Assembly (NCBI GenBank): GCA_964016885.1
Contig: OZ024740.1
Coordinates: 437,038,001-437,102,000 of the forward strand
Source: Eledone cirrhosa
Lineage: Eukaryota
Direction: 5' to 3'
Length of the DNA: 64,000 bases
Below, one piece after another: positions 5,946 through 61,159 of this stretch (its first letter is position 1; every line of letters starts with the position of its first letter). Made by a program: the position numbers and the translations under genes. The notes under the pieces were generated by a model, which was not told where the DNA came from, made no database searches, and was given only the letters and a program-made list of their open reading frames with translations.

Positions 5946-6028
5946 ACTTTCCTGATGACGGAATGATTTTCTATATGTTTTTTCGGAAAATATATTTACT
6001 CCATTCCAGAAACTAATTAGTTGGAAGT
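5946..6028 (+). ncRNA. Type I hammerhead ribozyme (family A) in a non-coding unit at ~5682-6080
   Basis: actttc CTGATGA c-ggaatg...cattcc-a GAAA ctaattag TT ggaagt; palindromic stem III; homologous to the 27160-28430 unit. Confidence 0.8.
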
Positions 6029-6673
6029 GATTTTTTAGTAAGTAAGTTAATTTTATAATTTTCTTATGTTACGTCTCTCATATATATATATATATGTATA
6101 TATGTATATGTGTATATGTGTATATATATATATATGTATGTATATATATATTTATATATGTGTGTGTGTGTATATATATATATATGTATATGTGTATGTG
6201 GGTGTGTCTATGGATGCGCGCGAGTGTGTGAGTGAGTGTGTTTTGTGAATGTGTCTGTTGATTTTGGCATATAGTTGAATAGTTTAAGAGAAATTTGAGG
6301 ACAATTGTAAGATATGCACTCAATATTTTGAATTTGTCTACAGAATTCTCTAAACCTTTGTCACTTAGTAAAGAATTTAGCTTTTAAAGAATCTCCCTTT
6401 CCTTTAAATCTATCTACCATGACTGACCCTAACTGATTTCATAGACACCTGTTAGCTTAAGAGAAACTTAATAATAAGGATTGGCATGCCATCCTGAACC
6501 TGTTTATAGAATTCTTTCTGCCTTTGTTACTCTAAAAATAAAAAATAAACTATAGCTTTGTAGAATTAGCTTTTAATGAATTCTATCAACCAATGACCTA
6601 CACCCATCCCACTCCTCACCCTCTCCTACCACTTGTAGAGACCTATATATACCATACTTATTTGTTGATACCC

Positions 6674-6724
6674 AGATTCCTGATGATTTCTAATGAATGA
6701 AACAGTTCTAGTCCTGTAGAATCT
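6674..6724 (+). ncRNA. Type I hammerhead ribozyme (family B) in a PLE pLTR-like repeat at ~6250-6807
   Basis: agattc CTGATGA tttc-taat-gaat GAAA cag-ttctagtc-ctg TA gaatct; 6-bp stem I, GUA cleavage triplet. Confidence 0.88.
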
Positions 6725-6871
6725 CATCTATATTAAAACTTTTATACTCTGCTATGTATTGAGTACCTTACTTACTGTGGTTACCTCCGATTCAACCCGG
6801 AATAACGTATATATATATATATATATATATATATATATATATATATATATATATATATATATATATATACA

Positions 6872-7830
6872 TAAGGAGACAACAAACAGTGGTCAAAAGT
6901 ATTATTCATTTCACGCTTTTTATTGAAAAGAGGAAAGAATGTTGGGGACCTGTCGGGCTTAAGCCCTTCTTCAGAAGTATAAATAGAGACAAGATCTCAC
7001 TGGAGAAACAGAAAGAAGGTCCAGTAAAGACACACACAAAATAAACGAAATGAAGAAGGAAAACAAGTGATTAGGTAGTCTTGGTAACGAGTAGGAAGTG
7101 GAGTGTGTGTGTGTGTTAGTGTCGTTATTTGTATGAGTGTAAGTGTAAGTTTAAACGTGTGATTTTAAAGGTAAATTGTGTAAAGTAACAAAGATAGTGT
7201 GTGTATGTGTATATCTATATGCTAGTGGTAGTGGACATGTATGTGTGAGTGGATGTAAGTTTGGATGTGTTACTGTTTATGTGCGTTGAAGTAATTTTGT
7301 GTGTGTGTATACAGTATCGGTGGTGTAGCGTATGTCCGTGAGAAGAGTGGATTAGTATGTGTGAGTGTATGATAAATTATAACATGTGTATGTATGTTGA
7401 AGTATGTATGTGTAGGTGGAAATATCTAACTGTGATATGTATGTAAGTGTGTATGTATTAACGAGTATGTCACGTAGGATAAAGTACATAGTTTAGTGTG
7501 TGATAGAAAGTATATGACAGAGCTGATTAAAGGAAGATGGGTGACGCATTAAGGTGAGGGGGAAGGAAGGTTTGTTAGCAGAAAATAAGTTGCTGTTCTC
7601 TCCGCCAGCGCGAGTGAAGGGGTCCGGCACAATGTGTGAACCCGAAGAAACTGAAGTGGCGTGTGGAGTGGCCGGCGGATCGAAAATATTGGGCGATTGG
7701 AGTTGGGTTGCCGACCCGGATGTCACGAAGGTATTCAGCAAATCTGTCAGCCAGAGGGCGTCCAGTCCGGCCGAGGTAGATAGCTCTGCAAAGAGTACGA
7801 TGGAGACAAGGCTAGTGGAGGTGCAGTTGT
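6872..7830 (-). mobile_element. 3' end of Neptune-like PLE with decayed HHR
   Basis: Minus strand CTGAAGAagggcttaagcccGACAggtc near 6945-6978; similar to the terminus at 20892-21010. Confidence 0.5.
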
Positions 7831-8885
7831 AGGAGTCCCTAAAGCGTGAAACTAATAAGACATTTTGTACCTCTGTTGTCTCCTTCAACTATATTTTCCA
7901 CGCTTACGAGGAATCTTTATATTTCGATCCTAGATATTTACTTACACTCTGTGACTGCTCTAATTACCACCCTGTCCAATCCACGAATTACGAACGGACC
8001 TCGAATATTTTGAATATATATATATATATATATATATATATATATATATATATATATATATATAGACCTAATGATTAATTGATTAATTTAATTTGACAAT
8101 TCCATTGATTGGTTAATTATTTAAGTTTGTTTAATAACGGTCTGGTTGAGTGCTTAATTCAGTTTGTGTATGGAATTTTTTCCATTGCCCATAATTTTTG
8201 AATTGACCGCCAGAAACCGGGGTTACCTCCCTTTGGAGTAACATGTGCTTCACAACTGGTTTTGGGTTAGAACGAAAGCCTGTTGAGAAAGTAAATTCCT
8301 CTGTTCGATCTTCCAGAAACCTAACTTGCATACACCACAAGCGGATTTTGTTGATTTCGGATTTACAGAAACCTCGCTTGGATATTCAGTAATTTCCAAG
8401 GTACGGTCCAGGTATGTTATATATACAGATATGTGCATATATGTATGTATATATATATGTGTGTGTATGTGTGTGTGTATATATTTCCTTTTCTCACTAG
8501 TCAGTTCTTTCGTTGCTACAGATCACGCGGCTAAATTAGCGGTCGCTATTTTCAATTTGCAAAGCCCTTTAAACTGTGTTATTACTCTGAGGTTTATTCC
8601 TTGTCGAGTGCTTGGCTCCACTGCTGAAGGCATTCGTTGGCTTGGCTTCTGATCGAACTTCGAATATGCTGTACTATTGTATATATATATATATATATAT
8701 ATATATATATATATATATATATATATATATATATATTGTTATACTTTGGGAGGGTCATGTTGCCAATAAGAAACACACGCACCAGTTTCTTTCACTTCAA
8801 ATTATTATAATAAATTTATAATAAATTTATAAATTTATAAATTTCTGGTTGGTTGGTTCCACAACCAGATAGTTGTTTATATATT

Positions 8886-59059: not shown

Positions 59060-59207
59060 ACTATCTATCGGTCACAACTCCAGGTAGAAGGAGCAACGTG
59101 AAATAAAGTGTCTTGCTCAAGGACATAACGCATCGCCCGGTCCAGAAATCGAACCCACAACCTCACGATTGTGGATCCAATTCTCTAACCACTCAGCCAC
59201 ACGCCTT
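59060..59207 (-). mobile_element. tRNA-derived SINE 5' part (second SINE family)
   Basis: Minus strand ggcgtgtggctgagtggttag (A box)..ggttcgatttct (B box)..ccttgagcaagacact. Confidence 0.75.
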
Positions 59208-59732
59208 CAATACATTAGTAGATATTTTAAACACCTTTTTATGCGTGTGTGCGTGTGTGTATACATACACACACACACAGCAGTGACTTCAGAAACATTG
59301 GGAAATGTGGAGATTTGAAACGTGAGCGTCCCAACAAAAATAGCCATAATAACTGTATATCAATATAAATAATAGTTGTGAAAATCGGCGAAAAGGGTTA
59401 GAGAGGCACTAGAGAGAAATTGGATCCCGCATCTCTAGGATTCCGGTGAGTGCATTAACCACTACTCTAAACAACCGTTAGTCACCAACTTCGTCTAAAA
59501 GTTTAAGCCTGTAGCTAGAAGTGAAAACAAAGTGTTCAACGTTAGATTGGGGGATATTGATATGTGGACGTCGCAACGAAAATGACTATAATAATAGCCA
59601 TGCACTATCTATCTACAGGCTTAAATATCTTCTAAAAAGAGGGAATTTTAGCAGCGAAGTAGATAACACACTCGGATGTGGGGGTTCGATTCCTCGCAGA
59701 CACATCTCTACACGAATATATTATATTATATA

Positions 59733-60804
59733 CTAACAGCAGTACCCAGCGTTGCCTGGGTAGGTAAAATAATATCTACTTTGATGAAAAGGTGTTGATC
59801 ATAGCGACTGCTTCTCGATGACTCATCTATGGCCACACACAGGCCATGTGGGGGAGGGTGGTGATGACCTCTATCACTGAGAAACGCGGGTGACTGACGA
59901 AGGGGCATGCTGAGGGAGGTAATGACCTCTAACACTAAGCCAAATTTCCTCACGCTACTTGATTGGAAACCGATGAATTCTCAAATACACAACTAAAAGC
60001 TCAGACGACGTCAGTGGCCATCATTTTGCCTTTGACCATGTATAAGATGTGCAATGATAGGTTCTAACGTAGTATAAAAGTTGAACCAAATAAATTGATT
60101 TGTGTGTGAGGTGGAGCCGAAGTTTCGAATTTGAACGAAATCGGTTGAAAAATGTGGGAGCTAATGATAGGTTCTATCGTAATATAAAAGTTGAACCAAA
60201 TAAATTGATTTATGTGTGAGGTGGAGCCGAAAAGGCGGAAATTTGAGCGAAAAGGTGGTATTTTCGAATATTAAAGCGGCTGCCACGCCGTTCCTGAATA
60301 AAGACTCCAAAATATAAAGCCACGTTAAGACGTGAAATAATCAGATCTAGCGTAGTGTAAAATTTGAACAAAGTAGGTTGAATAATGTGGGAGCTAGAGC
60401 CGAAAAAGTGGAAATTGTGTCTAAAAGTGATATTTTTGATTATTTAAGCTGCTGCCACGCCGTTCCTAAACAACAAATGCAAAATATAAAGCCATTACAG
60501 GATGTGCAATGATAAATTCTATTTTGCTTTAAAATTTGAACGAAACGGTGGCAAAATGTGGGAGCTACAGCCAAAAATCTTATTTTTCGATACCTAAAAA
60601 AAGGTGACCACCCTATCGATTTTTATCTGCAGAATGACCCCGGAATAAAAAAAAAACCATACGCTGATATATAGAAATCATACCCCGATGACTAATCTAT
60701 GAGGCTGTAAAGTTTCATGAAAATTGGTCGTAAGATGTAGGCCCCTATAGGTAATACACAGACACACAGACACACACACATACTTAATTTTATATATATA
60801 CAGA
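59733..60804 (-). mobile_element. Non-autonomous Helitron
   Basis: Minus strand 5' A|TCtgtatatatataaaa; 3' hairpin acccaggcaacgctgggt then TTAG|T; internal repeats aaatttgaacgaaa..aatgtgggagcta. Confidence 0.75.
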
Positions 60805-61107
60805 TATATATATATATATACAATTAAGTTAAATGTACATTTTTAACTTAATTGTTTAAGCGTCAGTCATACAAAAGTGAGTTACAAACGAAACGAAATT
60901 TAATTTCGTTTCGTTATTTGTTTTTATATATATATATATATATATATATATATATATATATATATATATATATACACACATATATACTCACTCACTCTCT
61001 CTACCATCATATATATATATATATATAAGTTTATTCTGGGTTCACTCGGGGGTAACCACAGTAAGGTACTCAATACATAGCAGAGTATAAATATTTAATA
61101 TAGAAAT

Positions 61108-61159
61108 GGCTTCTACAGGACTAGAACTGTTTCATTCGGGAGAAATCATCAGGAAAGCC
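61108..61159 (-). ncRNA. Family-B hammerhead
   Basis: ggctttc CTGATGA tttc-tccc-gaat GAAA cag-ttctagtc-ctg TA gaagcc. Confidence 0.8.

Follow-up and report, generated by a model that had tools for sequence, protein, structure and literature searches.

Type I hammerhead ribozyme motifs in a 64-kb stretch of the Eledone cirrhosa genome: a probable nest of Penelope-like element tails and related tandem units

A stretch of 64,000 nucleotides of the Eledone cirrhosa genome (assembly GCA_964016885.1, contig OZ024740.1, positions 437,038,001 to 437,102,000; hereafter the window) was described in an initial annotation as holding about 20 unannotated hammerhead ribozymes (HHRs) of about ten families, which raises the question of whether these motifs are genuine, what brought them together and whether they cut the transcripts in which they lie. 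The analysis presented here gives a probability of roughly 80% to the reading that the window is a nest of insertions of Penelope-like element (PLE) tails and related tandem units that carry type I HHRs, the dispersed copies of which are mostly inert relics. The assembly comprises 2,996 Mb, and its four giant chromosomes span 379-443 Mb. Core positions follow the hammerhead numbering, in which C3 and G8 form a pair within the core.

A hammerhead-like motif is present at all 22 of the proposed sites. The descriptor used for their evaluation comprises CUGANGA or UUGANAA, stem II, GAAA, a hairpin or palindromic stem III, UH and a stem I of at least four pairs, allows stem II to be flanked on either side by one extra base, and was applied with a score cut-off of 23 after the window run. 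In the window it recovers 21 motifs, namely 20 of the 22 sites and a weak extra at 53303 (score below 23), which is probably a chance match. The two sites missed are 30759, with the core UUGAUGA (U3.G8 in place of C3-G8, by which this HHR is likely impaired), and 34034, where stem I is unpaired beside the core. The catalytic boxes CUGANGA (or its U3-A8 covariant), GAAA and NUH occur in type I order at 21 of the 22 sites, 30759 being the exception. An earlier strict descriptor, in which stem II could have no additional base at its foot, recovered four motifs. The reversed window contains no match, while 120 dinucleotide shuffles in 100-nt, 500-nt and whole-window blocks average 0.13-0.20 motifs, with a maximum of two. 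The comparison proposed beforehand, that of the motif count with dinucleotide-shuffled sequence, thus gives 20 of the proposed sites against about 0.15. These figures bear out the proposed number of motifs, and that of the families is likewise upheld (F1 to F9 and the type at 34034, for which no second copy was found among the genome loci compared). The motifs are indeed unannotated as far as Rfam is concerned, as no HHR family reaches its gathering score in the window and none is found among the best 150 of 318 matches at E<=10, a list swamped by microsatellite matches. The cut sites named earlier (after 6718, 20622 and 53022) are correctly placed, and a core at 55404, a minimal core at 21003, two decayed cores (6974 and 16410) and, in the 57487 family, six half-copies had been overlooked.

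Chance matches in AT-rich, low-complexity DNA would be favoured by a descriptor that was drawn up after the window motifs were known, and by the short tandem repeat that makes up about 20% of the window (masked self-BLAST). The near-zero shuffled and reversed controls argue against them, as does the independent test, a genome sample of 108 evenly spaced 10-kb blocks (1.08 Mb), in which 110 motifs are found against one in the reversed and 1.7 in the shuffled sequence. Exact patterns for single families, when reversed, also match nowhere in the genome. Covariation in family F1 points the same way: among 13 distinct copies, 90% of the alignment cells are paired and both sides have changed at 9 of 24 pairs, a degree of covariation equalled in 0-1 of 500 shuffles, with slid controls only 33-44% paired. 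The F1 copies are related, and the shuffle figures are therefore not probabilities. One stem II position shows all four Watson-Crick types, and the position adjoining the core is an unpaired C.A in 12 of the 13 copies. Covariation in stem I is visible by eye in F2 and F5 and was counted for F1 alone. A chance origin, the probability of which is practically nil, is refuted, and the motifs are confirmed as type I hammerhead motifs.

The claim that none of the motifs is explained by open reading frames (ORFs) holds insofar as the motifs are non-coding; 13 of the 22 nevertheless belong to families sited 3' of a PLE ORF. In five families (F2, F3, F6, F8 and F9) the HHR lies 3' of a reverse transcriptase (RT)/GIY-YIG ORF, near the end of the element. 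The F3 HHR follows the stop of the 1005-codon type of ORF by about 200 nt in both window copies, and the F9 cores come after GIY-YIG fragments. Four of six long F2 loci carry the ORF type of 4052-4924 upstream at 90-97% identity, and this PLE is the parent type of the F2 HHR. The F2 loci L209 and L213 are collinear, with an inverted tail, ORF, untranslated region (UTR), TA/TG tract of 0.9-2 kb, 480 unique bases and HHR. An F2 HHR also lies downstream of the PLE type of 31539-32446, or forms its inverted 5' tail, in 5 of 20 loci, that in the window included. The long upstream region shared by F2 copies was considered as a long unique element and rejected, as it is microsatellite, the PLE's own 3' UTR tract. 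RT followed by a C-terminal GIY-YIG domain, the hallmark of endonuclease-bearing (EN+) PLEs, is present in the window frames, with Pfam matches mostly below the curated cut-off, and 5' truncation, partial tandems and inverted 5' copies, also traits of these elements, all occur (e.g. 49698-53060, L209 and L213). Four frames tied to F2, F6 and F8 show the linker CxCX5C, which is exact in two, and on these motifs the three HHR-linked ORF types look like members of the Hydra clade, PLEs of which bear HHRs and insert in (TA)n (PMC8557442). The two other PLE types (CX4CxxC; DKSG or DKGG) appear Neptune-like by the motif descriptions in the same paper. For the intact frame at 9130-12147, the best named match is an Octopus vulgaris protein (67% identity). 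An open frame of 287 codons (12003-12866, minus strand) overlaps its start in a different phase and recalls the frameshifted ORF1 depicted in some PLEs.

The remainder of the window fits this picture of nested insertions. Microsatellites or matches to the other genome loci compared cover 79% of it, with no unique stretch of 300 bp left; repeats were mapped by masked self-BLAST, the unmasked search being swamped by microsatellites. As to coding remnants, it holds those of PLEs, one intact frame of a long interspersed nuclear element (LINE) and, near 62-63 kb, a transposase-like frame that is broken. A search of frames against Pfam, which short exons would escape, revealed no host exon in either the window or 100 kb of flanking sequence; none of 77 short window frames matches Pfam, and one of 21 flank frames does so below the cut-off.

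Families F1 and F5 have a different vehicle. The F1 unit (539 bp, GC content 36%, longest ATG frame 98 codons) and the F5 unit (482 bp, 35%, 137 codons) each contain an HHR, and any match to a window PLE protein lies within 1.5 kb at one of 18 F1 loci outside the window and one of 19 F5 loci. They are non-coding tandem units of the retrozyme type, likely mobilised by PLEs. With the animal non-LTR retrozymes (PMC7229834; bioRxiv 10.64898/2026.07.22.740005) they share non-coding tandem units, a GC content below 50%, one type I HHR per unit, coexistence with PLEs and a U.U at the base of helix II (HHR_Amex2). They differ in the C.A mismatch and long stem II of F1 and in their PLE-style inverted 5' copies; their unit lengths of 480-540 bp exceed the 150-450 bp of PMC7229834 and fall within the 51-972 bp of the bioRxiv study. 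As unequal exchange can enlarge tandem arrays, the F1 and F5 tandems might instead be DNA-level satellites grown from PLE tails, not mobilised through RNA. This appears quite improbable: the arrays are short and scattered on many chromosomes, they bear head-to-head inverted 5' copies as PLE insertions do, and the units fold as circles more stably than their shuffles (F5 -159 against -109 +/- 6 kcal/mol, F1 -119 against -97 +/- 6 kcal/mol; 20 shuffles each). Further tandem HHR units occur outside the window at L084, L182 and L021 (311-bp period), L167 (about 835 bp), L062 (595 bp) and L211 (641 bp), some non-window units having a U3-A8 core.

The surroundings of the motifs suggest how they were inserted. 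(TA)5 lies within 210 nt downstream of the cut site in 17 of the 20 window motifs, and (TA)4 lies within 150 nt downstream in 51 of 100 sampled motifs, against 21 of 100 upstream and a background of 20%. Neighbours of the same family at most 1.5 kb apart are arranged in tandem (57) or head-to-head (34) and never tail-to-tail (215 sequences, duplicates removed), a layout that holds for the 119 of these sequences not chosen by search (16, 12 and 0, respectively). In 16 of 19 F2 head-to-head pairs among the first 100 genome matches, the cores are 4-27 bp apart, as judged by eye. F8 is represented by 36,161 3' halves against 1,079 copies with the first box, 97% of tails being without it, and 17 of 28 F8 alignments begin at -35 to -45, within stem II. 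Within the window, most F8 half-copies adjoin an inverted copy, with which they make up palindromes of 100-120 bp. In approximately 35,000 F8 half-copies stem III, the cut site and one half of stem II are preserved; these copies are usable as a neutral control, and that they are substrates for trans cleavage by whole F8 RNA is speculation. Of 189 tail alignments, none begins at the first base past the cut or within 2 nt of it, the starts clustering inside or just before the fold; these alignments span 11 references, with some copies counted repeatedly, approximate BLAST ends and one reference site off by 9 nt. Such an absence is compatible with templates that remained uncut or were re-ligated. 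The Hydra-like PLEs (L209, L213, and in the window 2628-3768 and 5475-6200) contain a TA/TG microsatellite of 0.9-2 kb in the 3' UTR, and other insertions lie within such a tract at L210, L211, L214 and 5683-6080 of the window. Part of the very high microsatellite content of the genome may thus have been spread by retrotransposition.

Under the proposed course of events, the PLE endonuclease would nick (TA)n and reverse transcription would begin in the tail of 20-200 nt behind the HHR, so that even very short insertions would retain the motif. Copying would often halt or invert at the HHR fold, and the TA/TG tract in the Hydra-like 3' UTR would take new insertions, so that the nests would feed themselves. 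In the source elements, tandem transcripts would self-cleave as dimers via the palindromic stem III, probably with the help of the PLE protein, and the F1 and F5 units would yield monomers or circles of the retrozyme type.

Several observations weigh against the reading of the window as a nest of mostly inert PLE tails and tandem units. Neither an ORF nor a tandem unit could be tied to F4, F7 or the 34034 motif (5 of the 22 sites), and one tail-to-tail F2 pair, 233 bp apart, occurs among the genome matches. Only one of five RVT_1/GIY-YIG matches on the PLE frames reaches the curated Pfam cut-off, one linker cysteine is altered in two of the four Hydra-like frames, and the clade labels (Hydra-like, Neptune-like) rest on motifs. 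In single-sequence folding, few of 15 motifs adopt the full three-stem fold as their minimum-energy structure and three have a z-score below -2, an unremarkable signal of the kind expected for short AT-rich HHRs. Finally, compensatory changes show that the fold was selected in the source elements, by which the term inert is limited to the dispersed copies.

With regard to cleavage, the further claim of the initial annotation, that any transcript crossing the region would be cut repeatedly, is unsupported: 15 of the 20 window motifs are predicted to cleave only with a dimer partner, the search for host exons gave none and the insertion ends lie off the cut site. In these 15, which have self-complementary stems III, and in 102 of the 110 sampled motifs, the monomer stem III has at most three pairs. 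Stem III pairs with itself with negative duplex energy in 18 of the 20 window motifs and is fully self-complementary in 69 of those sampled. A same-strand partner is therefore predicted to be necessary, and a partner with an intact core within about 2 kb is available only to the pair 27222/27761 and the related motifs 30945/33002. The head-to-head pairs 55585/55680 and 49728/52969 would be masked, each motif by its own antisense copy. In the F7 pair (55580-55649/55675-55744) an alternative pairing between the 5' strand of stem I and the beginning of stem II can hide the first box in a hairpin, which is a possible built-in off state. F2 and whole F8 would be exceptions, as possible monomer cleavers. 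In published work, PLE HHRs of this design show no activity as monomers and only weak activity as dimers (PMC4209133), that of the Anolis PLE cleaves only with the PLE protein, is dispensable for insertion in vitro and shows no RNA-seq ends at the site (PMC11167929), and the HHRs of the axolotl retrozymes, one of which has U.U at the foot of helix II, cleave better as dimers and form circles (PMC7229834).

Two other functional readings were weighed. The motifs could constitute a working catalytic repertoire, with numerous solo copies cleaving pre-mRNA of the host or read-through transcripts co-transcriptionally and so shaping the host transcriptome. Intact cores at about one per 10 kb, the ability of F2 (19,578 cores) and F8 to form a stem III of 4-5 bp as monomers and the tolerance of U.U at the base of helix II by an active axolotl HHR (PMC7229834) speak for such a repertoire. 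It is nonetheless distinctly unlikely given the short monomer stem III of most sampled motifs, the lack of a host exon in the window and its flank, the slowness of published PLE HHRs or their dependence on PLE protein without read ends at the cut site (PMC4209133, PMC11167929), and the fact that young copies hold intact cores without selection. Alternatively, the fold may be kept mainly as a structural signal, for protein binding or as a point at which RT stops or switches, with cleavage incidental or absent. The pile-up of tail starts at or just before the fold and their absence at the cut agree with this, as do the catalytic mutants of the Anolis PLE HHR, which still insert in vitro (PMC11167929), and the many families without G10.1-C11.1 directly after A9. 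Conversely, the boxes, including the U3-A8 covariant, are conserved across families with otherwise unrelated stems, as if the chemistry were selected, and a re-ligated circle likewise leaves no end at the cut site; a mainly structural role is doubtful, if deserving of some weight. The view adopted here is that the tandem source elements would be actively processed, with F1 and F5 circles probable, and that elsewhere the motifs would be mostly silent relics.

The motifs in the window form part of a genome-wide load. Weighted by chromosome class, the sample corresponds to approximately 290,000 motifs (bootstrap 207,000-381,000), i.e. 101 per Mb or one per 10 kb, with 67 per Mb on the four giant chromosomes versus 172 per Mb on the small ones (a small sample). 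Exact patterns, which fix the boxes and stem III and only some of which test stems I and II, count 11,245 cores of F5, 9,620 of F1, 69,185 of F6, 19,578 of F2, 16,053 of F3, 3,946 of F7 and 1,079 of whole F8, or 130,706 in sum, with none for any reversed control. On the genome counts, 46.7 matches to the first six patterns would be expected in the sample and 46 are found. As a whole the sample is thus representative, with deviations for single families (F6 16 versus 25, F7 5 versus 1.4). Scaling the exact count by 110/46 gives about 310,000 motifs. The 110 sampled motifs fall into at least 39 stem III/stem I classes. The genome thus carries at least 130,000 HHR motifs, for which self-cutting is predicted. 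The window, at 312 per Mb, exceeds the genome mean about 3-fold, its flanks hold 17 motifs in 100 kb and some 1% of resampled 64-kb sets reach 20 motifs, clustering ignored; 3 of the 108 sampled blocks, tandem arrays with 7-10 motifs each, have a higher density than the richest 10-kb block of the window. The proposed large repertoire therefore stands as to its size, but the window is not special in this respect.

PLE terminal repeats are known to carry HHRs, most genomic copies being solo truncations (PMC4209133). With the metazoan PLE HHRs (PMC4209133; PMC6765202) those of E. cirrhosa share the type I topology, the palindromic stem III, the site in the terminal repeat, the many families per genome, mostly as solo truncations, the U3-A8 variant and opposite-strand pairs 100-700 bp apart. 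They differ in longer stem III palindromes (6-19 nt) and an often long or branched stem II, by which the example descriptor of PMC4209133 finds almost none of them (four in the 1.08 Mb), and G10.1-C11.1 is not the rule. Minimal HHRs in the strict sense of Fig. S7 of PMC4209133 (GAAANNUH, stem II 3-7 bp, loop 3-10) are absent from the window, and its motifs are variants with a short palindromic helix III. A mismatch at the base of stem II (U.U, C.A, A.A, A.G or G.A) occurs in 31 of the 110 sampled motifs; it was rejected as a new variant, as the 2014 descriptor permits extra N10/N11 and U.U occurs in axolotl HHR_Amex2. The Hydra-clade PLEs of PMC8557442 share the C-terminal GIY-YIG, the CxCX5C linker, the HHR, insertion in (TA)n and an aquatic invertebrate host. 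That clade was described from 23 proteins, with few families beyond cnidarians, whereas tails of Hydra-like ORFs form the largest classes here (F6, F2 and the F8 halves). The 3' UTR microsatellite is not mentioned in the relevant section of PMC8557442, and membership of the clade is motif-based here.

The load is also far above the 2,000-9,000 HHRs per genome of PMC4209133 (Schistosoma mansoni about 2,000 plus 1,300 minimal motifs, coelacanth 4,000, Xenopus tropicalis 9,000), and Acropora has more than 6,000 in 16 families and the mussel about 5,000 (PMC7229834). The axolotl shares a six-figure, repeat-derived count, with 126,247 type I HHRs in two families (PMC7229834), or about 4.5 per Mb in a genome of 28.21 Gb (bioRxiv 10.64898/2026.07.22.740005), whereas the figures here, with other descriptors, are a minimum of 44 per Mb and an estimate of about 100, from dozens of families. 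The floor of 130,706 exceeds all published counts found; with differing descriptors, other genomes may be undercounted. A cephalopod HHR survey was not found in the literature searched, which lacked most subscription papers, and the words ribozyme, hammerhead and Hydra are absent from the main text of the 2026 curated repeat annotation of Octopus vulgaris (PMC13282606). A bolder proposal is that this is the densest HHR load on record, some 300,000, arising from a burst of Hydra-clade PLEs that brought their own microsatellite landing pads, with the tandem families forming abundant circular RNAs and the monomer-competent families cutting host transcripts enough for counter-selection in gene bodies; taken as a whole this seems unlikely.

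The features of the window are collected in Table 1. Among the other elements, the LINE at 34673-37843 is possibly young. Two tRNA-like copies (48440-48510, minus strand, and 48788-48858, plus strand; Rfam 38 and 44 bits) lie in a nested inverted repeat (48342-48995), which is probably a tRNA-derived short interspersed nuclear element inserted with PLE-style inversion. Broken frames at 61824-63143 (minus strand), with an internal duplication of 218 bp and no Pfam match, resemble by eye a hAT-type transposase remnant.

Table 1. Ribozyme motifs, their carriers and other elements in the 64-kb window (cut sites are predicted)
Feature	Position	Strand	Remarks
5'-truncated PLE	4052-4924	-	CxCX5C linker (Hydra-like); then own 1.1-kb microsatellite 2628-3768
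F1 HHR	5946-6028	+	Stem III palindrome ACUAAUUAGU; C.A at stem II base; cut after 6022; in truncated unit 5683-6080, itself inserted in (TA)n
F2 HHR	6674-6724	+	Stem III 4 bp; U.U at stem II base; cut after 6718; in tail 6200-6807 of Hydra-like PLE
F9 decayed minimal HHR	6940-6980	-	GACA for GAAA; 3' of GIY-YIG fragment 7557-7796
F3 HHR	8886-8928	-	Extra G, then G10.1-C11.1; cut after 8890
PLE RT + GIY-YIG	9130-12147	-	Intact frame, 1005 codons; linker CX4CxxC; DKSG
Decayed HHR core	16410		
Second PLE RT + GIY-YIG	17233-19679	-	Frameshifted; DKGG, CX4CxxC
F4 HHR	20540-20627	+	Stem II long and branched; stem III ACAAUUGU; cut after 20622; no link to an ORF found
F8 half-copy	20696-20833	+	Begins within stem II; first catalytic box lost
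F9 minimal core 21003	20970-21010	-	Stem I unpaired; tail of upstream GIY-YIG fragment 22473-22685
F1 tandem of non-coding 539-bp units	27159-28419	-	Retrozyme-like; third copy truncated; short inverted end
F1 tandem HHR	27222-27303	-	Cut after 27227
F1 tandem HHR	27761-27842	-	Cut after 27766
F5 HHR	28957-28999	-	Stem III ACUAGU; U.U at stem II base; cut after 28963; solo piece of unit of about 480-500 bp, tandem at other genome loci
F6 HHR	30319-30395	-	Cut after 30333
F6-type HHR	30759-30829	+	C3 to U (U3.G8); site after 30821
F6-related HHR	30945-31000	+	Different stem I; stem III AUAUAUAU; cut after 30995
F2 HHR	31372-31422	-	Cut after 31378; inverted 5'-end tail of PLE fragment 31539-32446
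5'-truncated PLE	31539-32446	+	CxCX5C linker (Hydra-like); 3' UTR enters (TA/TG)n tract
Further F8 half-copies	32713-32902, 33389-33577, 34469-34550, 44920-45112, 53733-53931		
F6 HHR	32997-33059	+	Cut after 33047
HHR-like motif	34034-34113	-	Perfect palindrome ACCAUGGU; first stem I pair unpaired; site after 34040
LINE endonuclease + RT frame	34673-37843	-	Intact, 1056 codons; related short tails 14114-14725
F7 HHR	40853-40923	-	C.A at stem II base; cut after 40865
Second copy of 9130-12147 PLE	45669-47863	+	5'-truncated
F3 HHR	48064-48106	+	Cut after 48102
PLE insertion	49698-53060	+	Inverted tail 49698-49965, truncated ORF 50005-51845 (Hydra-like), 1.1-kb 3' UTR, F6 HHR, tail
F6 HHR pair of one PLE insertion	49728-49789 (-), 52969-53030 (+)	-/+	Cut of plus copy after 53022
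F2 palindromic insertion	55302-55464		Intact core 55404 (+) fused to inverted copy of own 3' half; 5' strand of stem I missing
F7 head-to-head pair in 55556-55768	55580-55649 (-), 55675-55744 (+)	-/+	A.A at stem II base
PLE insertion	55809-57678	+	Short inverted tail, truncated ORF 55818-56764 (Hydra-like), 3' UTR with (TA)n, F8 HHR
F8 HHR	57492-57585	+	U3-A8 core variant; stem III 5 bp; cut after 57581
F2 HHR	57713-57769	-	Cut after 57722
F2 HHR	61108-61158	-	Stem I covaries with 6674 copy; cut after 61114

The type of element is already known, and what is new is the scale of the load and its likely cause. With no HHR family reported by Rfam, and four motifs found by the published descriptor against 110, standard searches miss this class, and other PLE-rich genomes have probably been undercounted. 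One HHR per 10 kb over 3 Gb represents a natural data set on what PLE hammerheads do, in which the position relative to the fold can be determined for tens of thousands of insertion ends; in the small sample, breaks coincide with the fold and never with the cut site. If the monomer-competent families were active, they would impose a real cost on a genome with long introns. Beyond the window, the value of the finding lies in a genome-wide load, largely of Hydra-like PLEs, with a readable record of insertion breaks.

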